DNA from: Sandaracinaceae bacterium
GTDB lineage: Bacteria > Myxococcota_A > Polyangia > Polyangiales > Sandaracinaceae
Reading direction: 5' to 3'
Length of the DNA stretch: 64,000 bases
NCBI GenBank assembly: GCA_044220955.1
Contig: JBGAQA010000005.1
Coordinates: 9,897-73,896 of the forward strand
Shown: positions 1 through 21,691 of the stretch, one piece after another
Layout: each line of letters begins with the position of its first letter
How positions within the stretch are numbered: position 1 is the stretch's first letter
Position numbers and translations under genes: made by a program
The notes under the pieces: model-generated
What the model saw: only the letters and a program-made list of their open reading frames with translations
The model's database searches: none
What the model was told of the DNA's origin: nothing

Positions 1-1716
1 GTCGCGCGAGTGCGCGAGCGGGTACACGTAGCGGCGCCCCTCGGCGGTGGCCTGCACCACCTGGGTGTACGCGATCACCACGCGACGGCTGCCGTGCGCC
101 GGGATCGGGAAGATCCGTAGCTCGAAGTTGCCGCCGCGCTGCCACTCGAGCAGCGCCGGATCGCGCCACGGCCCGGGCACCCACACGTACTCCTCGTGCG
201 GATCGCGGTGCGCGACGGGCGTCGCGTGACGGATCACGCCGCGCCAGATCGCGGCCGCGCGGTTCTGAGCCACGAACGCGCCCTCCTGCAGGTGGCCGTC
301 GACCTCGAGCGCGAGGCGCGAGATGCGCGCGTCGGCCGGGAGCGGGAAGCGGTAGGTGCCCTCGAGCTGGTCCCCCGAGTCGTTCTGGAAGACCTGCTCG
401 ACCTCCGTGCGCGCGACGTTGCCGGCGATGCGGACGCGCACGTGCTGCGAGGCGACGAAGAGCGGGCGCTCGCGGTCCTGGCTCTCGCCGGGGCGGCGCG
501 CGCGGAGCGAGCCGATGCCGGGGACGGTGGAGTCGGTGGTGTGCTCGCCGGTGTTGTCCTCGTCGAGCGCTGCCCACGACACGGCGCGGGCGAGGTCGAT
601 CGTGGGGGCGACCTGCGGCGCGCGGCCCGTGCGGAGGATGCCCTCCTCGCCGACCTCGACGTCCATCTCGGGCGAGCCATCGCTGCCGACGCGCACCTTG
701 CCGCGCGTCACGCGCACGGACGAGACGCTCGTGGCCGCGGAGAGCACGAACTCGGTGCCCACGACGCTCACGTGCCCGGTCGGCGTCGTGAACACGGCCG
801 AGGGGCCCTCGTCGAGGTGCGCGACGTCCGCGACGATCTCGCCCGAGCGCAGGTCGAAGTGCCGCGCACGGGCCGCATCGACGAGCAGCTCGGTCGTGTG
901 GTTGAGGACGAGCTCGGAGCCGTCCGAGAGGGTGAGGCGCGCGCGCGTGCGCTCGTCGGTGCGGACCGTGGAGCCGGCGGGGACCGTCGCGCCCAGCGCG
1001 AGCGCGGCGTACGTGCCGCCGGGCGGCATGATCTCCACGCCGGTACCGGTCTCGCCGGCGGCCGCGCGGACGACCTGCGCGAGCGTGCCGGTGATGGCGC
1101 CATCGATGGGCGAGCCCGGTGCGTGATCCGGGGTGGTCGGACCCGCCGGCCAGAAGGCGATCGCGGCGGACGCGGCGACCCCGAGCGCGGCGAGCGTGGA
1201 GAAGAGGACGATCACGCGGCCGAGGCCGCGACGCGCGGGCGCGGCCTTCGGCGCCGGATCGGCCTGCTTGGCCGCGCGCGCGGCGTCGAGCGACACGACC
1301 TCGGCGGTCTTGGAGGAGACGCTCTCGCTCTCGCTCTCGCTCTCGCTCTCGCTCTCGCTCTCGCTCTCGCTCTCGCTCTCGCTCTCGCTCTCGCTCGTCG
1401 CGGTCGCGGTCGCGGTCGTGGTGGCGGCAGGCTCCGGCGCGAACCCTGGCTGCGTCGTGCGCTCCGGCGCGAAGCTCGCGCCGCCCGCCTTCGTGTCCAG
1501 CGCCGCCAGCATCCTCGCCTCGAGGTCGGCGGGCATCGCCCAGTCGTCGCCCGCGTGCGCGAGCGCGTCGGCCGCGGCCTCGGCGTCGTGACGGATGTCG
1601 CGCGCTCGGTCGTCGTCCGCCAGGAAGTCCGCATGCCGTGCGATCGCCGCCCGGTCGCCGTCCACGATCGGACCCAGCTCGTCGAGGAATCGTTCCATCT
1701 TGTCGTTGCTGCTCAT
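1..1716 (-). CDS. Anti-sigma-like membrane protein with FecR domain and VIT (vault inter-alpha-trypsin) domain; 3' part runs off the window
   Basis: Not in the ORF track. Manual translation from ATG 1716 (ATGA overlap with the sigma gene stop): MSSNDKMERFLDEL..., TM segment VIVLFSTLAALGVAASAAIAFW, FecR-like LTLSDGSELVLN...TPTGHVSVVGTEF, VIT-like HVRVRIAGNVARTEVEQVFQND...LEGTYRFPLPADARISRLALEVDG...DPALLEW. Confidence 0.85.
   Translation of the reverse strand, partial: MSSNDKMERFLDELGPIVDGDRAAIARHADFLADDDRARDIRHDAEAAADALAHAGDDWAMPADLEARMLAALDTKAGGASFAPERTTQPGFAPEPAATTTATATATSESESESESESESESESESESESESVSSKTAEVVSLDAARAAKQADPAPKAAPARRGLGRVIVLFSTLAALGVAASAAIAFWPAGPTTPDHAPGSPIDGAITGTLAQVVRAAAGETGTGVEIMPPGGTYAALALGATVPAGSTVRTDERTRARLTLSDGSELVLNHTTELLVDAARARHFDLRSGEIVADVAHLDEGPSAVFTTPTGHVSVVGTEFVLSAATSVSSVRVTRGKVRVGSDGSPEMDVEVGEEGILRTGRAPQVAPTIDLARAVSWAALDEDNTGEHTTDSTVPGIGSLRARRPGESQDRERPLFVASQHVRVRIAGNVARTEVEQVFQNDSGDQLEGTYRFPLPADARISRLALEVDGHLQEGAFVAQNRAAAIWRGVIRHATPVAHRDPHEEYVWVPGPWRDPALLEWQRGGNFELRIFPIPAHGSRRVVIAYTQVVQATAEGRRYVYPLAHSRD
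1321..1396. repeat. Hexanucleotide microsatellite (GCTCTC)x12.7, encoding a (Ser-Glu)n linker on the minus strand
   Basis: Perfect tandem repeat read directly; in frame within the FecR/VIT gene. Confidence 0.95.
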
Positions 1717-2285
1717 CGCTCGACCTCCGCGCCCAGGAGCTCTTTCATCCGTGCCAGACCGCGGCTCACTCGCTTGCGAGCGGCCGCTTCGTCGATCGCG
1801 CAGGCCGCCGCGATCTCCGCGTAGTCGAGGCCCGCCTGGTACCTCATCACCACCGCATCGCGCTCCGAGGGCTTCAGCTCCTCGAGCGCCCAGCGAACGC
1901 GCTCGGCGCGCCGCTTCTGCTCCAGCACGTCGTCGGGCAGCCGCGCCGCTTCGCTCGCGTCGAACACGAGCCGCAGCCGTCGCTCGCGCCGCCCGCGCAT
2001 CTCGAGCCGCCGCGCGCACATGCGCCGCGCGATCCCGAAGAGCCACGCGCGCACGGTCCCCTCGTGCCGGAACTCCCGGAAGCCGTCGTGCGCGGCCATC
2101 AGCACCTCCTGCACGCACTCGTCGGCCTCGGCCTGCGAGCCGAGCATCGCCATGCAGAGGCGCCCGAGCGAGGCGCCGTGGGCGCGCACGCAGAGCGCGG
2201 TGGCGTCGCGGTAGGCGCCCTGGGTGATCGCGAGGAGCACCGGGTCGTCCGGTGCTGGGAGCGGTGCGGAGGAGGCGGGTAGCAT
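1713..2285 (-). CDS. ECF (sigma-70 family) RNA polymerase sigma factor
   Basis: Region 2 ADECVQEVL...FRHEGTVRAWLFGIARR; region 4 LKPSERDAVVMRYQAGLDYAEIAAACAIDEAAARKRVSRG. Confidence 0.9.
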   Translation of the reverse strand: MLPASSAPLPAPDDPVLLAITQGAYRDATALCVRAHGASLGRLCMAMLGSQAEADECVQEVLMAAHDGFREFRHEGTVRAWLFGIARRMCARRLEMRGRRERRLRLVFDASEAARLPDDVLEQKRRAERVRWALEELKPSERDAVVMRYQAGLDYAEIAAACAIDEAAARKRVSRGLARMKELLGAEVER

Positions 2286-2322
2286 CACCCTGCATGTGCC
2301 CACGAACCCCGCATTTGTGACA

Positions 2323-2406
2323 GGGGTCACTCCACCAGGTCTCAACCCATCGAAATCACGGCGGTCTGGCGGCTAGGTGCGCGTTTTGTCGGCGTGGAGT
2401 GACCCC
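2323..2406. mobile_element. MITE/REPIN-like element, short copy
   Basis: 13-bp terminal inverted repeat GGGGTCACTCCAC...GTGGAGTGACCCC; interior aligns with the left arm of the 23834-23996 element. Confidence 0.6.
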
Positions 2407-2446
2407 CGTTCGACGCGCGGGGGGCGACGTGACACACCGGCGCCGC

Positions 2447-4003
2447 ATGAGGCCCACCGTCCTGCTCGGAAAGACGCCGCTCACCATCGAGGCTGTCTGC
2501 GCGATCGCCGAGGGACGAGCGACGATCGCCATCGACTCGGACGCCGAGCTGCGAGCACGCATCGCCGCCGGCTCGAAGTTCATCGAGGACAGCCTGAAGA
2601 ACGGGCGGACGATCTACGGCGTCACCACCGGGTTCGGTGCGTCGGTGGAGTTCCAGGTGTCTCCCGAGGTCGCCGAGGGAATGCCGCTGAACCTCGTGCG
2701 CTATCACGGGTGCGGAACGGGAGCGATCTTCGGCCCTCGCGAGGCCGCCGCGATCACCGCGGTGCGGGCGAGCTCCCTCTCGCGCGGGTACTCGGGCGTG
2801 CGCCAGGCGCTGCTCGACCGGCTCTGCCTCTTCGTCGATCGCGGCCTGCTCCCCTGCATCCCCGAGGAGGGCTCGGTGGGCGCGAGCGGTGATCTCACTC
2901 CTCTCTCCTACGTGGGCGCGCTCCTCGTGGGCGAGCGTGAAGCGTGGCTCGGAGGCAAGCAGCTCGACGCGATGGCGGGACACCGCTCGCTCGGGATCGA
3001 GCCGATGACGCTCCGCCCCAAGGAGTCGCTCGCGATCATGAACGGTACGAGCGTGATGAGCGCGCTCGGCTGCCTCTCGTGGATGCGCGCCCGGAAGCTC
3101 GCTCGCTTCACCGCGACGCTCACGGCGATGGCGTCCGACGTGCTGCACGGCGTGGCCGCGCACTTCGACGACCGCATCTACGAGCTCAAGCCGCACCCCG
3201 GTCAGCGCGTGCTCGCCCGCTGGATCCGCGAGCGCGTGCATCAGCAGAACCCGCCGGCTCGCGTTCAGGACCGCTACTCCGTGCGCTGCGCGCCGCACGT
3301 CGCCGGGCTCGTGCTCGACTGCCTCGGCTGGACGCGCCAGATGCTGGAGACGGAGCTGCACGGGATCAACGACAACCCGATCATCGAGGGGATCGGCCCC
3401 GAGGCGCCCGAGGGCCGCGTGATGCACGGCGGCAACTTCTACGGCGGGCACGCCTGCCTCGTCACCGACACGCTGAAGAACGTCGTCGCGAACGTGGGCG
3501 ACCTGCTCGACCGGCAGGTGGGGATGATGTGCAACCCCGCGACGAACGCGGGCCTGCCGGCGAACCTCGTGGCGCGCACCGGCGCCGATCGCCCGACGCA
3601 CCACGGCTTCAAGGCCATGGAGATCAGCGCGAGCGCGCTCGCCGCCGAGGCGCTCAAGATGAGCATGCCAGCGAGCGTCTTCTCGCGGAGCACCGAGAGC
3701 TACAACCAGGACAAGGTGTCGATGGGCACCATCAGCGCGCGCGAGTGCGTGCGCGTCCTCGACCTCGTCGAGACGATCGCCGTGATCCACCTGCTGACGG
3801 TGGTGCAGGCGGTCGATCTGCGCGGCCCCGGCCACTGCCACCCGAGGAGCGTCGAGATGCGCGACGCGGTCCGCGCCAGGATCCCGATGAACACCGCCGA
3901 CCGCCGCATGGACGTGGACATCAGCGCCGTGCTCGAGATGTACCGAGCAGGCGCGCTGCCCATCGGTGAGATCGACTTCGAGACCGGACCGACCTCCGCG
4001 TGA
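2447..4003 (+). CDS. Aromatic amino acid ammonia-lyase (HAL/PAL/TAL family, MIO enzyme), aryl-polyene-cluster type
   Basis: IYGVTTGFG, MIO motif GSVGASGDL, LRPKESLAIMNGT, QDRYSVRCAPHV, HGGNFYG, STESYNQDKVSMG. Confidence 0.92.
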   Translation: MRPTVLLGKTPLTIEAVCAIAEGRATIAIDSDAELRARIAAGSKFIEDSLKNGRTIYGVTTGFGASVEFQVSPEVAEGMPLNLVRYHGCGTGAIFGPREAAAITAVRASSLSRGYSGVRQALLDRLCLFVDRGLLPCIPEEGSVGASGDLTPLSYVGALLVGEREAWLGGKQLDAMAGHRSLGIEPMTLRPKESLAIMNGTSVMSALGCLSWMRARKLARFTATLTAMASDVLHGVAAHFDDRIYELKPHPGQRVLARWIRERVHQQNPPARVQDRYSVRCAPHVAGLVLDCLGWTRQMLETELHGINDNPIIEGIGPEAPEGRVMHGGNFYGGHACLVTDTLKNVVANVGDLLDRQVGMMCNPATNAGLPANLVARTGADRPTHHGFKAMEISASALAAEALKMSMPASVFSRSTESYNQDKVSMGTISARECVRVLDLVETIAVIHLLTVVQAVDLRGPGHCHPRSVEMRDAVRARIPMNTADRRMDVDISAVLEMYRAGALPIGEIDFETGPTSA

Positions 4004-4037
4004 CGCCGCGCGGAACGGGGCCGGGGGCCGGGGATCG

Positions 4038-4325
4038 TCAGCGGATGTGCTGAACCTCGGGCACGACGTTGCCGTCCACCTTGATCGCGCAGCTGCCGTC
4101 GGTGAACGGGCCGTCGCCGATGCCGAGGATCACGTGCACGTCGACCGCCTTGCCGTTCAGCTCGGCGCTGCCGTGGAGCTCGCCGATGCCGATGAAGGAC
4201 CAGGCGCGGCGCGCGATCTCGTGGCCGTCCCACTCGATGCTGAAGCCGCGCGTGATCTCGTTGCGGGCCACGGTGATGTTGTGCCCCTCGTACTTGGCTT
4301 CCCAGCGAGTCGCGATCAGTCCCAT
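4038..4325 (-). CDS. Small hypothetical beta-rich protein (95 aa)
   Basis: ATG 4325 preceded by a GGAGG RBS; coding-like composition MGLIATRWEAKYEGHNITVARNE... Confidence 0.7.
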   Translation of the reverse strand: MGLIATRWEAKYEGHNITVARNEITRGFSIEWDGHEIARRAWSFIGIGELHGSAELNGKAVDVHVILGIGDGPFTDGSCAIKVDGNVVPEVQHIR

Positions 4326-4385
4326 GTCCAACCCCTCCAGCCCCGCGGACGCTACCACGATGCGCGGGTGCTAAGGTGCCGCGTC

Positions 4386-4904
4386 ATGAGAGACGATGCG
4401 GAGCGGGTCGAGCCCATCACACGCGAGCTGCGCGAGCGCGCACCGGACGGGGCGACCACGGTCGATCTGCAGGTGCCCTTCCACGACTGCGACCCGCTCT
4501 TCGTCGCTTGGCACGGCTGGTACTACAAGTACTTCGAGATCGCCCGCTGCGCGCTCTTCGCCGCGCACCGCATCGACGTGCCCGACATGATCCCGCTCAA
4601 GCTCGGCCTCTACGTGATCGAGACCCGAGCGCGGCACGTCGGCACGCTGCGCTACGGCGACAAGTTCCGCGTCGCGGCCTGGTTCACCGAGTGGCTGGCG
4701 CGCATCTCGGTCGCCTACGAGATCCAGAACCTCACCACGGGCAAGCGCGCCGCGCGAGGCAAGACGGTGCTGGTGACGACGCGCCGCGCGCACCACGGGA
4801 CGCTGGCGTCTCCGGACGCTCCGCGTCCAGGCGAGGACGAGATGCTCTTCGAGACACCCGAGGTGCTGATCGAGCGCATCGTGGCACCCCCGATCGCGCG
4901 ATGA
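4386..4904 (+). CDS. Acyl-CoA/ACP thioesterase (4HBT/YbgC hot-dog family)
   Basis: VPFHDCDPLFVAWHGWYYKYFEIAR motif. Confidence 0.88.
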   Translation: MRDDAERVEPITRELRERAPDGATTVDLQVPFHDCDPLFVAWHGWYYKYFEIARCALFAAHRIDVPDMIPLKLGLYVIETRARHVGTLRYGDKFRVAAWFTEWLARISVAYEIQNLTTGKRAARGKTVLVTTRRAHHGTLASPDAPRPGEDEMLFETPEVLIERIVAPPIAR

Positions 4905-5566
4905 ACACCTCCGGCCCCAGCCCCGTCCAAGGGGGCGTGCCCCGCCTCGTCGCCGCCGCGCTCGCGCTGGTCCTCGTCGCCGCCGCCTTCACACCCTGCG
5001 GGTCTGCGTCCGCGCAGACCGCACCCACGCTCGACTCGGTGCTCCGGCGCTTCGCGTCGATCGAGGGGCTGACCCTCTCGTTCCACGAGGAGAAGCGCAT
5101 CGCGCTGCTCACGATGCCGCTCTCGACCGACGGCACGCTCGCGTACTCCCGCCCGGGTCGCCTCGCGAGGCGGGCCAGCGGCCAGGTCGTGCTCATCGAC
5201 GGCGCGTCACTGCGCATGGCCGACGGCGGGCACGAGCAGCACATCGATCTCGCCTCGCAGCCCGTCGTGCGCAGCTTCGTCGACTCGTTCCGAGCGCTGC
5301 TGGCTGGAGAACGCGCGGCCCTCGAGCAGAGCTACGTGATCTCGTTCGCGACGACGGCGCCCGACTGGACGATCACGCTCACGCCGCGCGGAGCGCCGCT
5401 GAGCGAGTTCCTCGCCAGCATCGTGTTCGTCGGCCACGGCGACGCGCTCGTCTCGATGACGATGAGCGAGACGAGCGGCGACGTCACGACCACGACGTTC
5501 TCGAACGTGGACGATCACCACCGCTTCAGCGCGGAGGAGTCGGCCCGCGTCTTCGACATCCGCTGA
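4901..5566 (+). CDS. LolA-like outer-membrane lipoprotein carrier-fold protein
   Basis: Signal peptide, FHEEKRIALLTMPLSTDGTLAYSRPGRL, WTITLTP; ATGA overlap with the thioesterase. Confidence 0.8.
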   Translation: MNTSGPSPVQGGVPRLVAAALALVLVAAAFTPCGSASAQTAPTLDSVLRRFASIEGLTLSFHEEKRIALLTMPLSTDGTLAYSRPGRLARRASGQVVLIDGASLRMADGGHEQHIDLASQPVVRSFVDSFRALLAGERAALEQSYVISFATTAPDWTITLTPRGAPLSEFLASIVFVGHGDALVSMTMSETSGDVTTTTFSNVDDHHRFSAEESARVFDIR

Positions 5567-5587: not shown

Positions 5588-6028
5588 TCAGGCGCCCGAG
5601 TCGGGAGCCGGGACCGCTCCATACGCGGGAGCCGGACCGCCCGCGTCGTCCGCTGGCGCGCCGTACGCCGGCGCGGTGTTCCCCGCGTCGGATCCGGCGT
5701 CGATCGGGGGGCCGCCGTACATCGCGAGCATGCCCGAGTCGTTGCCAGGCGTGCCCATGTCGGCCGTGGGCATGCCGGTGTCGGCCGGCGCGCCGTACGC
5801 GGGCGCGATCCCCGAGTCGGTGCCCGGCGTGGTGGCGCCCCCGCATCCAGCGACGCTGGTCGCGATCGCGGCGCCGAACGCGAACGTCGCGGCGCGACCG
5901 AGGCGCTGCATCGGCTGCGCACGCTCCGGCACGCCCTCGAGGGCCAGGGCGCTGCCGCAGAACGGACAGCCGCTCTCGGAGCGGCGGACGTGACGCGAGC
6001 ACGAAGGACAAGGAAGCAGCTGGCTCAT
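5588..6028 (-). CDS. Putative splicease substrate 1 (Cys knuckle + lipobox + 4 XYG motifs)
   Basis: CPSCSRHVR...CPFC, RLGRAATFAFGAAIATSVAGC, motifs AYG/MYG/AYG/AYG. Confidence 0.85.
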   Translation of the reverse strand: MSQLLPCPSCSRHVRRSESGCPFCGSALALEGVPERAQPMQRLGRAATFAFGAAIATSVAGCGGATTPGTDSGIAPAYGAPADTGMPTADMGTPGNDSGMLAMYGGPPIDAGSDAGNTAPAYGAPADDAGGPAPAYGAVPAPDSGA

Positions 6029-6061
6029 CTCGAACTCCTGGGATGGGGTGGAACGCGCAGG

Positions 6062-6490
6062 TCAGGCACCGCTGTCGGGCGGCGGCGGCGCCCCGTAGTC
6101 GGAGCTCGAGCCGCCCATGTCGACGTCCCCCGCGTCCTGCGGAGGGCCGCCGTAGAGCGCCATCGCGCCGGCGTCGTCACCGGCATCCAGCGCCGGGCCG
6201 CCGTAGAGCGGACCTGGGCCGCCCGTGTCGACGCCCGTGTCGGCTGCTCCCGAGTCGCTCACCGCGGCGTCGATCGGCGGCCCGCCATAGGCCGCCGACG
6301 GACCGCCGCCGCACGCGGTCGTCGCCAACGCGGCCCCGAACGTGAACAGCGCGGCGCGACCGAGGCGCTCGACCGGCGATCGCGCGGCGACCGGTGGCGC
6401 GTCGAGCGAGACGCTCGCCCCGCAGAAGGGACAGACCGCCTCGGTCCGGCGGACGTGGCGGGCACAGGAAGGACAGGGGGCGAGGCTCAT
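6062..6490 (-). CDS. Putative splicease substrate 2 (4 XYG motifs)
   Basis: ATG 6490: MSLAPCPSCARHVR...CPFC, RLGRAALFTFGAALATTAC, motifs AYG/LYG/LYG/DYG. Confidence 0.85.
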   Translation of the reverse strand: MSLAPCPSCARHVRRTEAVCPFCGASVSLDAPPVAARSPVERLGRAALFTFGAALATTACGGGPSAAYGGPPIDAAVSDSGAADTGVDTGGPGPLYGGPALDAGDDAGAMALYGGPPQDAGDVDMGGSSSDYGAPPPPDSGA

Positions 6491-6495
6491 GGTGA

Positions 6496-6909
6496 CTACT
6501 CCGAGGGTGGGGGAGGCGGGGGCGGCGCGCCGTAGAGGGCCGCGGTGCCGGAGTCGGGGAAGTTCGCGTCGACGTCGAGGCCGGCGTCGACCGGCGGCCC
6601 TCCGTACGCCGCGACCAGACCTGCGTCGGTTCCCATGTCGACCGGCGGCCCGCCGTATGCGGCGTCGATCGATCCGTAGTTCGCGTCCGTGCCGGCGTCG
6701 CTCCCCGGCGCGCTCGCCGTGCCGCAGCCGGGCGCGCTCGCGGCGACCAGCGCGCCGAACGCGAACGTGGCCGCGCGGCCGAGGCGCTTGACCGGCATCA
6801 ACGCGGGCGCGGTCCCCGCGAGATCGAGCGACGACGCGCAGAACGGGCAGGTAGTCTCGTCCATGCGGACGTGACGGCTGCAAGAAGGACAAGGAGTCAG
6901 CGCGCTCAT
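6496..6909 (-). CDS. Putative splicease substrate 3 (4 XYG motifs)
   Basis: CPSCSRHVR...CPFC, RLGRAATFAFGALVAASAPGC, motifs NYG/AYG/AYG/LYG. Confidence 0.85.
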   Translation of the reverse strand: MSALTPCPSCSRHVRMDETTCPFCASSLDLAGTAPALMPVKRLGRAATFAFGALVAASAPGCGTASAPGSDAGTDANYGSIDAAYGGPPVDMGTDAGLVAAYGGPPVDAGLDVDANFPDSGTAALYGAPPPPPPPSE

Positions 6910-6984
6910 CTCGTGAAGCCCTCGCGGGACGAAGGAGAAGGAAGGGAATAGGATGCGACGGGCGGCGGTGTCGTCGCAAGAGCC

Positions 6985-7377
6985 TCAGCGGCCGGCGTCG
7001 AAGGGGGGCGCGCCGTACGCTCCCGCCAGCCCGCCGTCCTGACCGCCGTCGGGGAGCCCCGTGTCGTCGGGCGGCGCACCGTAGGGCGGGGAGACCCCGG
7101 CGTCCGGGTTGCCCGCCGCGTCGCGGCCGGAATCGACCGGGGTCGCGTTCGCGTCGACCGGCGCGCCCGAGTCGACCGCCGGCGTCGAGGACATGCTGCA
7201 CGCCGCGACGTTGGTCGCCATCGCCGCGCCGAACGCGAAGAGCGCAGCGCGCCCGAGTCGCTCGCTCACGACGGGAGACGAGAGCGGCTGGAGGGCGATC
7301 GACGCGGCGCAGAACGGACACACCACCTCCGTCGCGCGCACGTGTCTCGAGCAGGAGGGACAAGGCTGTAGCGACAT
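6985..7377 (-). CDS. Putative splicease substrate 4 (2 XYG motifs)
   Basis: ATG 7377: MSLQPCPSCSRHVR...CPFC, RLGRAALFAFGAAMATNVAAC, motifs PYG/AYG. Confidence 0.85.
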   Translation of the reverse strand: MSLQPCPSCSRHVRATEVVCPFCAASIALQPLSSPVVSERLGRAALFAFGAAMATNVAACSMSSTPAVDSGAPVDANATPVDSGRDAAGNPDAGVSPPYGAPPDDTGLPDGGQDGGLAGAYGAPPFDAGR

Positions 7378-7388
7378 CGTCTTCTCGC

Positions 7389-7898
7389 TCAGGGCCAAGG
7401 TGGCCCGCCATAGTCGGCGTTGCAGCATCCTAGATCGGCATCGGGCCCCGCGTCGTCCTCCGGGATCGGCGGCGCGCCGTAGAGGTTCAGGATCGCGCCC
7501 GCGTCGCGCTCGTCGGCCCCCGCCTCGAGCTCGTGCACCGATCCGCCGTCGGGCGTGACGGGAGCGCCGGCGTCCGGGTCGAGGAGGGACACGTCCATGG
7601 GCAGCAGCGACGCGTCGAGCGGGGGCGCCCCGTACGCCCCGATCGCCCACCCGGCGTCGTGCTCCGCCGTCGGTGGGGGGCCCGGCTCGAAGAGCTGCGT
7701 CTTGGACCCGCAGCCGGCCGTGCTCGTGACCGCCGCCGCACCGAGCGAGAAGAGCGCTGCGCGTCCGATGCGCGAGGACACGACGCGCGCGCTCGGCCCG
7801 GCGTCGGGGACGCGCAGGGTCCCGCAGAACGGACACGCCCGCTCCGTGCGGCGCACGTGCCTGTGGCACGACGAGCACGGTGCGAGCGTCGCGCTCAC
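7389..7898 (-). CDS. Putative splicease substrate 5 (3 XYG motifs)
   Basis: GTG 7898 overlaps the rSAM stop (GTGA): CSSCHRHVR...CPFC, RIGRAALFSLGAAAVTSTAGC, motifs AYG/LYG/DYG. Confidence 0.82.
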   Translation of the reverse strand: MSATLAPCSSCHRHVRRTERACPFCGTLRVPDAGPSARVVSSRIGRAALFSLGAAAVTSTAGCGSKTQLFEPGPPPTAEHDAGWAIGAYGAPPLDASLLPMDVSLLDPDAGAPVTPDGGSVHELEAGADERDAGAILNLYGAPPIPEDDAGPDADLGCCNADYGGPPWP

Positions 7899-9232
7899 TC
7901 GGCGGCTCCGGACATCGGGGCTGCGGGCGCCGCCGCTGCGGACATCGGCACCTCGACACTGTCCCTGGGCTCGACGACGATCTCGAAGCGCCCGTGGTCG
8001 AAGGGCTCGCCCGGCGCTTCCTCGGCCTTCACGACGCGCTCGCGCAGACCCTGCTTGTCGAACTCGAGCGCGCGGTGGTGACAGTACGGGTTGTTCCCCG
8101 CCTTGCCGAAGAGCACGAAGCTCGTCCACGTGCAGCCCGCGCGGCACTCGTCGGCGTAGTAACAGGTACGGCAGAAGCCGCTGAGATCCTCGACGGTGCG
8201 ATCACGCGTGTAGCGCAGCGGCGCCGAGCGCTCCCAGATGTCCTCGAGCGAATTGTCGCGGATGTTCCCGCCGGTCCACGCCTCGGTCGGCAGGGAGGGG
8301 CAGCCCTTGATGGCGCCGTCGGCCTCGATCCCGAGCGTCGAGCGCCCGGCGCCGCACGAGTACATGTGCCCGCGCGGCATGCGCCCGCGCAGCGTCGACT
8401 CGTAGGGCCCGAAGTAGCCGATGTTGTTGCCCGGCCACATCCGCACCTTGAGCTCGTCGCAGCGCTCCTTGAGCTTGCCGAGGCGCGGGAACAGATCGAG
8501 CAAGTCGTAGGGCTGGAGCAGCACCTCGGGCTCGTCGGCGGCGCGGCCCATCGCGACGGTGAGCTGGATCTGCCAGCTGTGCAGGCCCAGCGCGCCGATG
8601 GTCTCGAGCACGCCCTCGAGGTGCGGGATCGAGAGCCGGTTGATCTGCGTGTTGCACGACACCGGGATGCCGACCTCGCGCAGGTTGGCGATCGACTCGA
8701 GCGCCGACCTGTAGGACCCCTGCACGCCGCGCAGGCGGTCGTGCGTCGCCTCGTCCCCGTCGAGCGAGATGCTCGCCGTGCGCAGCCCCGCGTCCTTGGC
8801 CGCGCGCGCGCGCTCCTTGGTGATGCCGCGGCCGCCGCTCGTGAGCAGCGGGATCATCCCGTGGTGCGCGATGCGACGGATGATGTCGGTCCAGTCCTCG
8901 CGCAGGTACGCCTCGCCGCCGATGAGCGAGACCTCCTTCACCTGCATCGCGGCCATCTGATCGACGAGGTCGAGGCACTCCTCGGTCGAGAGCTCCTCGG
9001 GCCGCGCCTTGCCGGCGCGCGAGCCGCAGTGCCGGCACGCGAGGTCGCACGCGAGCGTGATCTCCCAGACCGCGTAGATGGGCCGCACGCGCTCGTCGAT
9101 CGGGCGCGCCTCGTCGGCGAGCGGAAGCTTGCGCTTGGCCGGCTTGGCGAGAGGGGCGAGCGGCAGGTGGCGAGGGCGCGGCGCCTTGGCGAGACGCTCG
9201 CGCTCCTCGGGGCTGATCGGGGAGTTGGCCAT
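7895..9232 (-). CDS. Radical SAM/SPASM peptide/protein maturase, PlpX-like splicease
   Basis: YAVWEITLACDLACRHCGSRAG (CxxxCxxC), LIGGEAYLR, QIQLTVAMGRAAD, PGNNIGYFGPYE; SPASM CGAG...IKGCPSL...CRTCYYADECRAGC...NNPYCHHRAL. Confidence 0.88.
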   Translation of the reverse strand: MANSPISPEERERLAKAPRPRHLPLAPLAKPAKRKLPLADEARPIDERVRPIYAVWEITLACDLACRHCGSRAGKARPEELSTEECLDLVDQMAAMQVKEVSLIGGEAYLREDWTDIIRRIAHHGMIPLLTSGGRGITKERARAAKDAGLRTASISLDGDEATHDRLRGVQGSYRSALESIANLREVGIPVSCNTQINRLSIPHLEGVLETIGALGLHSWQIQLTVAMGRAADEPEVLLQPYDLLDLFPRLGKLKERCDELKVRMWPGNNIGYFGPYESTLRGRMPRGHMYSCGAGRSTLGIEADGAIKGCPSLPTEAWTGGNIRDNSLEDIWERSAPLRYTRDRTVEDLSGFCRTCYYADECRAGCTWTSFVLFGKAGNNPYCHHRALEFDKQGLRERVVKAEEAPGEPFDHGRFEIVVEPRDSVEVPMSAAAAPAAPMSGAAE

Positions 9233-11138: not shown

Positions 11139-11783
11139 ATGCGCGCGTTCGCTTGGCCGTCCCCGCTCCTGCCCCTACCCTCCCTCACCCTGCCCTCGCT
11201 CGAGAGCAGCAGCGGGAGAACGACGCGCCTGCCCAGCCTCGAAGAACGCGCGGCGAGCGGCGACCGGCGGGCCCTCGAGCCCCTGCTGCGCGAGCACGCG
11301 CGCGCGATCTCCGAGCTCTGCCGCTGCCTCGCGGGGCCGGAGGACGGGCGCGACGCCGCGCAGGAGTCGCTCGAGAAGATCGTCGTCTCGATCGCGCGCT
11401 TCGATCCAGCCAAGGGCTCGTTCCGCGCGTGGGCGCTCGCGGTCGCGCGCAACACCTGCCGCGATCGTCTGCGCCGGCGCGGACTCGAGCGCCGGCTCTT
11501 CGTGGCCGAGACCGACGAGCCGATGGACCTGCCCGGCGACCAGCCCGACGTCGAGCGCACCGCGCTCGCCCGCATCGAGTCGGTGCGCCTGGCCGCCGCG
11601 CTCGAGACCTTGCCTGCGCCGATGCGCGCGGCGATCGTCCTGTTCCACGTGCACGAGTCCAGCTACGAGGAGATCGCTGCCGCGCTCGAGGTGCCGATGG
11701 GCACCGTGATGACGTGGCTGCACCGCGGGCGCAAGCGCCTGCGCATCGCGCTCGACGGCGAAGCGCCCGAGGGGGCGTCATGA
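11139..11783 (+). CDS. ECF sigma factor
   Basis: DAAQESL...FDPAKGSFRAWALAVARNTCRD; region 4 SYEEIAAALEVPMGTVMTWLHRGRKRL. Confidence 0.9.
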   Translation: MRAFAWPSPLLPLPSLTLPSLESSSGRTTRLPSLEERAASGDRRALEPLLREHARAISELCRCLAGPEDGRDAAQESLEKIVVSIARFDPAKGSFRAWALAVARNTCRDRLRRRGLERRLFVAETDEPMDLPGDQPDVERTALARIESVRLAAALETLPAPMRAAIVLFHVHESSYEEIAAALEVPMGTVMTWLHRGRKRLRIALDGEAPEGAS

Positions 11784-20626: not shown

Positions 20627-21691
20627 GTGAAAGAAGCGCGCTGGGTGCGGATCTGGGCCGCGATCGCTCTGCTGACGAGCGCGTGCGCCGACACGACCGG
20701 GGGCGCGGGCGACTCCGGAGCGGAGGCCGACGCGGACCGCGACGCCGGTGGCGGCGACTCCGGGTCGGCGCTCGACGCGGGGAGCGAGGGCGGGACCGTC
20801 GCGGACGCCGGGACCGATGGCGGCGCATCCGGCTCGGACGCCTCCCACGCTCCCGACGCGGCCGCCTGCCCTGCGCGTCCGTACCTCGGCTTCTTCGTCT
20901 GGAACGACGACCTCGTCACAGCGCGCGACGCGATCCTCGACCTCGCCCAGGGCGCGGGCGTGACCGAGATCTACCTCCACGCCAACCTCTTCTACGCGGG
21001 GGACGAGACCGAGACCACGCTCGCCGCGTGGATCGACGCCGCCCACGCGCGCTGCATCGACGTGGACCTGCTCTTCGGCAACGCGAGCTGGATCCATCCC
21101 GCAGGCCGCGCACAGGCGAGCGCACGCGCAGACTGGGCCGTCGCCTTCGCCGCCGCGCACCCGGGCTCACGCCCGACGGGCGTGCACTTCGATCTCGAGC
21201 CGCAGCAGCTCGCCGAGTGGTCGGACACCACGACGCATCCGGCGCTGGTGAGCGAGCTCGTCGACACGCTCACCGCGATCCGACCGGCGACCGACGCGGG
21301 CGGGCTCGTGCTCTCGGTCGACACCGGCTTCTTCCTCGACGGCGTGATGGTCACGCGGAGCGGCACGACGAGACCCGGCAGCGAGTGGGTCACCGACGCG
21401 GTCACGCGCCTCGTGGTGATGGACTACCGCGACAGCGCGGCGTCGATGGGCCACGGCGGGATGATCAGCCTGGCGCAGGACGAGGTGGACTACGCTGCCG
21501 CCCACGGCACGCCCGTCGTCCTCGCGGCGGAGACGAACCCGATCAGCCCCGAGTACGTGTCGTTCGCCGAGGAGGGACGAGCGGCGATGTTCGTCGAGCT
21601 CGACCTCGTACGCGCGCACTTCGCCTCCGCCGCGACGTTCGCCGGCGTCGCCGTCCACGATCGCGACGGGCTCGCGGCGCTCGGGCCCTGA
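20627..21691 (+). CDS. Lipoprotein with D-A-G linker and TIM-barrel-like, possibly glycoside hydrolase-like domain
   Basis: Lipobox TSAC, GVHFDLEP, VVMDYRD, GVAVHD. Confidence 0.65.
   Translation: MKEARWVRIWAAIALLTSACADTTGGAGDSGAEADADRDAGGGDSGSALDAGSEGGTVADAGTDGGASGSDASHAPDAAACPARPYLGFFVWNDDLVTARDAILDLAQGAGVTEIYLHANLFYAGDETETTLAAWIDAAHARCIDVDLLFGNASWIHPAGRAQASARADWAVAFAAAHPGSRPTGVHFDLEPQQLAEWSDTTTHPALVSELVDTLTAIRPATDAGGLVLSVDTGFFLDGVMVTRSGTTRPGSEWVTDAVTRLVVMDYRDSAASMGHGGMISLAQDEVDYAAAHGTPVVLAAETNPISPEYVSFAEEGRAAMFVELDLVRAHFASAATFAGVAVHDRDGLAALGP

Follow-up and report, generated by a model that had tools for sequence, protein, structure and literature searches.

The window analysed here is a stretch of 64,000 nucleotides (nt) from a Sandaracinaceae bacterium (contig JBGAQA010000005.1 of assembly GCA_044220955.1, positions 9,897 to 73,896 of the forward strand). 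It carries a gene for a radical S-adenosylmethionine (rSAM) enzyme with a SPASM domain and, directly after it on the minus strand, five paralogous genes for its putative substrates. Each paralogue joins three parts in one chain: an N-terminal zinc ribbon, an uncharged, hydrophobic stretch closed by an invariant Cys as in lipoprotein signals, and an acidic tail with repeated Y-G sites. Our favoured reading, which we hold with moderate confidence, is that the zinc ribbon, as an enzyme-associated leader, has been placed ahead of a signal peptidase II signal, and that the lipoprotein machinery removes this leader and anchors the modified tail.

From the arrangement of the genes, the enzyme and the five substrates look like one six-gene operon. 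The GTG start of paralogue 5 overlaps the stop codon of the rSAM gene (GTGA), and the intergenic gaps between the paralogues, counted from the enzyme side, are 11, 75, 5 and 33 nt. The G+C content of the window is 72%, and the source genome comprises 7.5 Mb in 301 contigs and is 88% complete. The features, in window coordinates, are as follows.

7895..9232, minus strand: radical SAM/SPASM enzyme of 445 amino acids, a PlpX-like putative splicease and first gene of the apparent operon (Pfam, NCBIfam)
7389..7898, minus strand: paralogue 5, 169 amino acids, with zinc ribbon, RIGR and uncharged run, TAGC box (Cys63) and a tail with three YG
6985..7377, minus strand: paralogue 4, 130 amino acids, with zinc ribbon, RLGR, VAAC box (Cys60) and a tail with two YG
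6496..6909, minus strand: paralogue 3, 137 amino acids, with zinc ribbon, RLGR, APGC box (Cys62) and a tail with four YG
6062..6490, minus strand: paralogue 2, 142 amino acids, with zinc ribbon, RLGR, TTAC box (Cys60) and a tail with four YG
5588..6028, minus strand: paralogue 1, 146 amino acids, with zinc ribbon, RLGR, VAGC box (Cys62) and a tail with four YG (AlphaFold2 model)
5957..6010, minus strand: residues 7-24 of paralogue 1, the CPSC-x10-CPFC core of the zinc ribbon, proposed as enzyme-associated leader element
5843..5905, minus strand: residues 42-62 of paralogue 1, RLGR n-region, 16 uncharged residues and VAG-Cys62, proposed as signal peptidase II signal with the site of cleavage and lipidation
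5591..5842, minus strand: residues 63-146 of paralogue 1, an acidic, disordered tail rich in G, A, P and D with four x-Y-G-[A/G]-[P/V] sites, proposed as the modified, lipid-anchored mature part

Architecture and spread of the substrate family

The five paralogues share a C-x2-C-x10-C-x2-C knuckle with invariant R12, H13, P22 and F23, followed by the segment R-[L/I]-G-R-A-A-x-F-x-[F/L]-G-A, an uncharged run and a Cys. The columns that are invariant in all five include C7, C10, R12, H13, C21, P22, F23 and C24 in the ribbon, R42, G44, R45, A46, A47, F49, G52 and A53 beyond it, and two Y-G pairs. An earlier reading of the window, made from the letters alone (the sequence-only reading), had described after the knuckle of each paralogue the segment R(L/I)GRAA.F..GA, a Cys box (VAGC, TTAC, APGC, VAAC or TAGC) and an acidic D-A-G/Pro tail with YG motifs. 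Segment and tail are seen in all five sequences, and the boxes are exactly as it quoted them. The same reading had made its proposal depend on conservation of the Cys in homologues. The Cys that closes the hydrophobic stretch is present in 256 of 256 homologues, and in an alignment of 60 sequences the sole invariants are the four knuckle Cys, R12, H13, F23, R45, A47, Cys62 and one Y-G.

The AlphaFold2 model of paralogue 1 has a confident zinc ribbon of two short hairpins at residues 1-30 (predicted local distance difference test score, pLDDT, of 91-95), a single helix at residues 45-61 that ends exactly at Cys62, and a tail that lacks secondary structure (pLDDT 54-71). A Foldseek search of this model against the PDB gave no match at E <= 0.001, and the weak matches were all small C4 zinc ribbons or fingers. 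Similarly, no Pfam or NCBIfam model matched a substrate above its cut-off, with weak sub-threshold zinc-ribbon matches on paralogues 2 and 4, and a search of the ESM Atlas with the substrate returned only 'hypothetical protein' clusters from Myxococcota. The knuckle lies within the first 80 residues of 250 of the 256 homologues; those of the other six that were inspected start inside the knuckle or just past it and look like truncated gene calls.

The zinc-ribbon module seems to occur only in this family. When it was sought on longer proteins there was a single match, apparently a frameshifted gene call, and the module was taken to be confined to the substrates. In the source genome no copy was found besides the five, two extra matches (E about 0.009) aligning to the tail only. 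Open reading frames (ORFs) with a YG site that have an ordinary short lipoprotein signal and no ribbon numbered none in 93 loci, against 118 with a ribbon. We infer that the ribbon, of about 30 residues, would be the recognition or leader element for the enzyme.

A profile built from the five paralogues matched 2012 proteins among 8000 candidates scored in one database, and in a second database 3147 cluster representatives at 50% identity, 1142 of these at E <= 1e-10. All named matches are called 'hypothetical protein', and related records are titled Sandaracinaceae, Polyangiaceae, Labilithrix and similar. The family is present in 112 of 201 sampled genomes of the order, a tally that takes in one unpublished genome (G123), with up to 19 copies per genome. 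Near-identical DNA to window positions 5588-9232 (at least half of the sampled words) also occurs, apart from the possible source sample, in sequencing runs labelled as activated-sludge metagenome from three studies.

Linkage to the enzyme was found whichever partner was used as the anchor. Among 79 substrate-anchored loci, 59 have an rSAM homologue scoring above 500 bits on the same strand, and 104 of the 105 substrates in these 59 loci lie less than 3 kb from the enzyme, with a median gap of 120 nt. The other 20 loci have no enzyme in the DNA examined (at most 9 kb on each side, less at contig ends), showing that orphan copies exist. A second sample was chosen by the enzyme and not by substrate motifs: the TIGR03913 model was run on 151 genomes from the phylum, and the 14 best loci were taken with 1.5-kb flanks. 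In each of the 14, which include 13 besides the window's own, the enzyme is adjoined by one or more zinc-ribbon ORFs that have a YG site.

The enzyme and the tail sites

The enzyme has the Pfam domains Radical_SAM and SPASM. Its best NCBIfam match is TIGR04103 (rSAM_nif11_3, 'nif11-class peptide radical SAM maturase 3'), where it scores 516 bits and the cut-off is 725; the alignment takes in nearly the whole profile (positions 3-383 of 412, E value 4e-155). TIGR03913 (GDL-motif peptide-associated rSAM maturase) comes second at 475 bits, not reaching its cut-off of 591.75, and TIGR04133 (rSAM_w_lipo) third at 162 bits, far under its cut-off of 425. By these profile scores the enzyme is a close relative, not a curated member, of TIGR04103 or TIGR03913. 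We take TIGR04103 to be the family of the splicease PlpX; our literature search found no paper mentioning either TIGR04103 or TIGR03913. In 30 homologues of the enzyme the CX3CX2C motif (C62-x3-C66-x2-C69) is invariant, as are seven auxiliary Cys with SPASM spacing (C293, C311, C354-x2-C357-x5-C363-x3-C367 and C384). Because the scores lie below the TIGR04103 and TIGR03913 cut-offs, splicing is only the putative chemistry of this enzyme.

Two further observations concern the enzyme. Its residues 1-50 (window 9083-9232, minus strand) form a basic, Pro-rich extension ahead of the radical SAM core in which R19, P20, L23, P24, R34, L36, P37, L38, R43 and D46 are invariant or nearly so, and on this pattern the extension is a candidate docking site for the zinc-ribbon leader. 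In 12 of the 59 enzyme-bearing loci (L032, L033, L035, L037, L047, L049, L050, L060, L070, L076, L087 and L091) the substrate genes are flanked by two rSAM paralogues whose identity to the window's enzyme is about 59-68%.

Tail statistics were taken from 218 of the 256 homologues, the other 38 being dropped as the tail-extracting pattern did not match them. Tyr is followed by Gly in 657 of the 702 tail Tyr (94%), far above the shuffled expectation (mean 137, maximum 162). The residue before the Tyr is mostly Leu (248) or Ala (204), and three positions after it stands Pro in 556 cases. Median tail length is 82 residues and median net charge -12; Lys, Arg and Cys are almost absent, any Cys at all being found in only 20 of the 218. 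There are two to four YG in each of the five paralogues, and these five account for most of the only eight ORFs in the 7.5-Mb genome with at least two YG[AG]P. The context x-[L/A/M]-Y-G-x-P resembles the splice tags of PlpA, given as ..RP[L/G]YGLPI in Table 1 of PMC10533398. An extra Cys-Cys pair is peculiar to paralogue 5, where it stands at residues 158-159 (window 7401-7412, minus strand), just before the last YG (LGCCNADYGGPPWP).

The export route proposed here could also serve a different chemistry, in which the enzyme modifies the Y-G sites, or residues elsewhere, without excising tyramine, and no ketoamide 'warheads' are formed. SPASM enzymes catalyse many different reactions, the scores of the enzyme fall short of both cut-offs, and none of the 151 sampled genomes of the phylum reaches that of TIGR03913, all of which favours such a chemistry. 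On the other side stand the near full-length match to TIGR04103 and the tail Tyr, which occur almost only in x-Y-G-x-P as in known splice tags. YG-rich substrates beside PlpX-like enzymes are, moreover, the subject of the survey of Scott et al. 2022, which as summarised in PMC10849128 and PMC10533398 covers 189 genera, 27 verified pairs and 939 predicted systems. We regard a chemistry other than splicing as rather unlikely, while giving it real weight.

Proposed export and maturation

The segment between ribbon and tail has the general form of a lipoprotein signal. The pattern of [KR]..[KR], 10-26 uncharged residues and Cys fits 247 of the 256 homologues, and the nine misfits still have the Cys there. 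Among the homologues, the most frequent length of the uncharged run is 16. Position -1 is Gly (120) or Ala (120) in 240 of the 247 pattern-fitting sequences, position -3 of the homologues is V, A, L, T, S or I, and at +2 there is G, S or A, Lys never being found.

These properties can be set beside the lipoproteins of the same genome, among which we collected 356 strict candidates with a PROSITE-type pattern (Leu, Val or Ile at -3, Cys at residues 16-30). Ahead of the Cys they have an uncharged run with a median length of 13 and a 10th-90th percentile range of 11-17, and the mode of the substrate family lies inside this range. Of the 356 candidates, 42 have at least two DAG within 60 residues past the Cys, versus 4 of 1665 random internal windows; the five substrate tails have two to four DAG each. 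The sequence-only reading had used four lipoproteins of the window, at 20627, 33653, 35239 and 38194, as an internal control, with D-A-G linkers and no YG repeats. All four indeed have D/A/G-rich linkers without YG repeats, and these follow short canonical signals (LTSAC, LLPGC, AIGC and AASC).

The genome encodes LspA (86.9 bits, above the cut-off of 73.95) and five Lgt-like genes that score 76-109 bits, none reaching the cut-off of 118.9; one of them lies beside lspA. No protease, ABC transporter or RiPP recognition element gene (RiPP being a peptide that is synthesized ribosomally and modified post-translationally) is conserved across the related loci, leaving a system of two components, enzyme and substrate. 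The absence of a leader peptidase or ABC exporter nearby, which the sequence-only reading had pointed out, is thus borne out in the related loci, and Pfam finds neither among the flanking genes. That reading had gone on to propose that signal peptidase II replaces the leader protease. The lipoprotein-type signal and the lack of a dedicated protease or exporter bear this out at the level of sequence; the lipidation, the ketoamides and the protease-inhibitor coat that were part of the proposal we only infer.

Under the mechanism that we propose, the enzyme would act in the cytoplasm, modifying the tail, which is acidic and disordered, at its x-Y-G-[A/G]-P sites before export. The weakly hydrophobic, Ala-rich signal would then take the tail across the inner membrane by the Sec route while the zinc ribbon stays in the cytoplasm. 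Lgt would lipidate the invariant Cys and signal peptidase II would cut before it, so that a leader of about 61 residues is lost. In this way the general machinery for lipoproteins would substitute for the leader peptidase and exporter of a RiPP pathway, and the product would be an N-terminally lipid-anchored chain of about 80 residues with two to five modified sites. In Myxococcus xanthus, Lys at +2 marks lipoproteins for retention in the inner membrane (PMC3222651). As no family member has Lys at this position, the products would reach the outer membrane or beyond, if the rule applies in this different order.

Several points weigh against this reading. The Cys lies at residues 49-104 (median 62). 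A PROSITE-type lipoprotein pattern combines a residue rule with a Cys at residues 15-35; its residue rule fits only three of the five paralogues and 205 of the 256 homologues, and in none of these 205 is the Cys inside 15-35. The failures among the paralogues are due to N at -4 in paralogue 4 and P at -2 in paralogue 3, the latter also being found in the control lipoprotein 33653 (LLPGC). Given the position of the Cys, we call the substrates lipoprotein-like with an extended n-region and not proven lipoproteins. It is also unusual for the n-region of a signal peptide to contain a folded zinc ribbon, and we know of no tested precedent. Each position of the segment RLGRAAxFAFGAA carries 3.3-4.3 bits in the Polyangia-type subfamily, compared with about 2.3 bits at positions -3 and -2. 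Such conservation exceeds the need of a generic signal and suggests that the segment has a second, sequence-specific role in this subfamily, which may be contact with the enzyme or with a targeting factor. There are also enzyme-linked ORFs that lack a proper signal (2 of 23, see below), and the enzyme itself stays under the curated cut-offs of both TIGR04103 and TIGR03913.

The helix might instead be an uncleaved signal anchor, giving a bitopic inner-membrane protein with the ribbon in the cytoplasm and the tail in the periplasm, in which the Cys is kept for a disulfide or for contact with a partner. A basic N-terminal part and a tail with a median net charge of -12 would fit an N-in/C-out orientation, the one helix that AlphaFold2 predicts is compatible with it, and so is a Cys so far from the N-terminus. 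Against this, the run is mostly of 11-18 uncharged residues, rich in Ala, Gly, Ser and Thr, and is short and weak for a stable span. Furthermore, an invariant Cys at the end of the helix with G or A before it in nearly all sequences is the signature of signal peptidase II, and the composition of the tail is like that of lipoprotein tethers. A signal anchor therefore seems to us improbable.

The enzyme-anchored sample, which gave the most telling test of the signal, bears on a further alternative, namely that the substrates are cytoplasmic RiPP-type precursors. The helix would then only dock to or activate the enzyme, as the leader helix of RhaA does; the Cys would mark the junction of leader and core, where an unlinked protease cuts, and the product would leave by an unlinked route or stay in the cell. 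The very strong conservation of RLGRAAxFAFGAA in the Polyangia-type subfamily speaks for this, and for binary systems PMC11414181 describes a helix of the leader to which the splicease binds. In the enzyme-anchored sample, however, a basic residue, 11-18 uncharged residues and [A/G]-Cys are kept in 21 of the 23 zinc-ribbon/YG ORFs, while in distant lineages the hydrophobic sequence differs from RLGRAAxFAFGAA and the boxes include LTAC, LAGC, LGAC, ALGC, FGAC and IAAC, often with Leu at -3. That length, lack of charge and a terminal small residue plus Cys are kept without conservation of sequence argues for the behaviour of a signal peptide, a physicochemical signal, and not for a specific docking helix. 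The absence of any conserved protease or exporter and the match of basic patch, uncharged run and small -1 residue to the genome's own lipoproteins also count against a cytoplasmic precursor, to which we give slightly less credence even than to the signal anchor.

The two exceptions among the 23 ORFs are of different kinds. One, in locus L109, has Asp at -1. The other, L106:2696-3085 (minus strand), has the ribbon and one LYGVP site with no hydrophobic segment and no Cys box, as a cytoplasmic precursor would; it adjoins the enzyme and lies beside a sibling that has both the hydrophobic segment and the Cys box. Judging by its sequence, it may be a naturally non-exported variant. The two exceptions show the ribbon to be the enzyme's constant partner and the export signal a separable module.

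Lastly, export by the twin-arginine translocation (Tat) system, or cleavage by signal peptidase I, in place of Sec and signal peptidase II is very improbable: an Ala/Gly/Thr-rich, weakly hydrophobic h-region is indeed Tat-like, and V or A at -3 with A or G at -1 would suit signal peptidase I too under its -3/-1 rule, but the twin-arginine motif is missing (the basic patch reads R-[LIMV]-G-R, 111 of 111 modal-register sequences having R at both -20 and -17, and RR occurs in it in one distant member only) and the invariant Cys at +1 plays no part in cleavage by signal peptidase I.

Shorter forms of the substrates are possible as well. An in-frame GTG at 7781 inside paralogue 5 (7389-7781) would yield a textbook 24-residue lipoprotein signal with Cys at 24, and 45 of 199 homologues have a Met at most eight residues upstream of the R-x-G-R patch. 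Such internal starts could possibly give rise to a short isoform without the zinc ribbon.

If maturation by the lipoprotein machinery is correct, radical-SAM backbone modification would in this case decorate a cell-surface lipoprotein and not a diffusible peptide. Ketoamide peptides of the splicease type inhibit serine and cysteine proteases (PMC11626197, PMC9811515), and by analogy with these properties a protease-inhibiting surface layer is a reasonable guess at the function. Taking this further, we tentatively speculate, with more doubt than conviction, that 'lipo-spliceotides' occur throughout the phylum. These would be lipid-anchored, disordered acidic chains matured by signal peptidase II that carry several alpha-ketoamides on the envelope or on vesicles. 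There they could hold serine and cysteine proteases of the cell itself, its prey or its competitors in a tethered, reversible-covalent trap.

Neighbouring genes and relation to known systems

Pfam assigned to the genes flanking the operon in the window extracytoplasmic function (ECF) sigma factors, an ammonia-lyase, a LolA-like protein, an acyl-CoA dehydrogenase and, about 5 kb away, an M23 peptidase; none of these is a conserved part of the related loci. Among the 79 substrate-anchored loci, the neighbours seen in the window recur rarely: a 275-amino-acid protein in five, the LolA-like protein in two, the ORF at 4400-4904 in two, the ammonia-lyase in one and a 106-amino-acid ORF in none. The upstream gene for the 275-amino-acid protein was accordingly not retained as a conserved member of the system. 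The LolA-like neighbour (4895-5566, plus strand), considered as a link to lipoprotein transport, was rejected for the same rarity and for its place in a divergent operon with the ammonia-lyase.

This divergent operon (2399-5566, plus strand) consists of an aromatic ammonia-lyase, the ORF at 4400-4904 and the LolA-like protein, and its genes stand beside the rSAM system in only one or two of the 79 loci. The ammonia-lyase matches best the tyrosine ammonia-lyase model BagA/FevW (402 bits) and then FlxA (284 bits), all below cut-off. The ORF at 4400-4904 has no Pfam or NCBIfam match and is thioesterase-like by eye, and the LolA-like protein matches LolA_3 and LolA2_flexi (E 6.5e-11). From these matches the operon looks like part of a pigment pathway of the flexirubin or aryl-polyene type.

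Only ECF sigma factors, Ser/Thr kinases and sigma-54 activators recur as neighbours in the related loci, and each of these is a multi-copy family in the phylum. In the window, two ECF sigma factor genes flank the locus, at 1713-2345 (minus strand) and at about 11200-11783 (plus strand). Of the 79 related loci, 13 have such genes; in L024, the closest relative, one of them comes directly downstream of the substrate genes. Their recurrence could be the background expected of a multi-copy family or could reflect a regulatory link.

In known RiPP pathways, removal of the leader and export are usually carried out by a dedicated protease and a transporter. If the substrates are instead matured as proposed, a lipoprotein processed by Lgt and LspA would be the end product for one very large group of spliceotide type, where a 2022 review (PMC9811515) gives the native end products of spliceotide pathways as unknown. 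The native molecules would then have to be sought in membrane or vesicle fractions and in Triton X-114 extracts, and the invariant Cys would provide a simple genetic handle. Standard lipoprotein predictors would miss these substrates because of the 40-residue zinc-ribbon extension.

Enzyme-substrate pairs of this kind are already known. The leader, a zinc ribbon joined to a lipoprotein signal, is from its sequence apparently new, with an earlier description possible: we found no paper that links a splicease or spliceotide with a lipoprotein, in a search that did not cover the Scott et al. 2022 survey itself. Searches for splicease together with Sandaracinus, Labilithrix, Sorangium or Chondromyces gave none among the matches listed, and a preprint on conserved Myxococcota gene clusters leaves SPASM, radical SAM and spliceotide unmentioned.

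The spliceotide systems are the nearest relatives of the system described here. As in Pleurocapsa (PlpX/PlpY/PlpA) and Rheinheimera (RhaX/RhaA, RcsX/RasX), an rSAM/SPASM enzyme adjoins one or more precursors with x-Y-G sites in a context like that of a splice tag. With several sites per precursor and no Y protein, the system recalls in particular the 'binary' spliceases described by Richter et al. 2024 (PMC11414181), which likewise do without a Y protein. The leaders differ, however, being of the Nif11/NHLP type or helical in the spliceotide systems and here a C4 zinc ribbon with a lipoprotein-type signal and an invariant Cys. Other differences are a 'core' that is an acidic, disordered tail of about 80 residues, the lack of a linked protease or exporter, an enzyme below the TIGR04103 cut-off and a chemistry that is putative.

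With the classical lipoproteins (Sec, Lgt and LspA; L-[A/S/T]-[G/A]-C) the substrates share a basic n-region, an h-region of 11-18 uncharged residues, [A/G]-Cys, a small residue at +2 and a tether of low complexity. They differ from them in an n-region of about 40 residues that contains a folded zinc ribbon, in a Cys at about residue 62 and not at 15-35, in a position -3 that in the substrate subfamily is more often V or A than L, and in a mature part without a folded domain. An N-terminal extension before a signal is also known from autotransporters, whose extended signal peptide region (ESPR) is conserved, precedes an ordinary signal peptide and is thought to modulate the timing of export. 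Unlike the extension described here, the ESPR is no zinc ribbon and is not linked to a modifying enzyme, and it precedes a signal peptidase I site.

A conceptual precedent, from a different family, is offered by Bacteroides, where TIGR04133 (rSAM_w_lipo) and TIGR04134 (lipo_with_rSAM) are a curated pairing of an rSAM/SPASM enzyme with a putative lipoprotein, the latter presumably being the substrate of the former. The TIGR04134 model has no match in our source genome and does match Bacteroides thetaiotaomicron.

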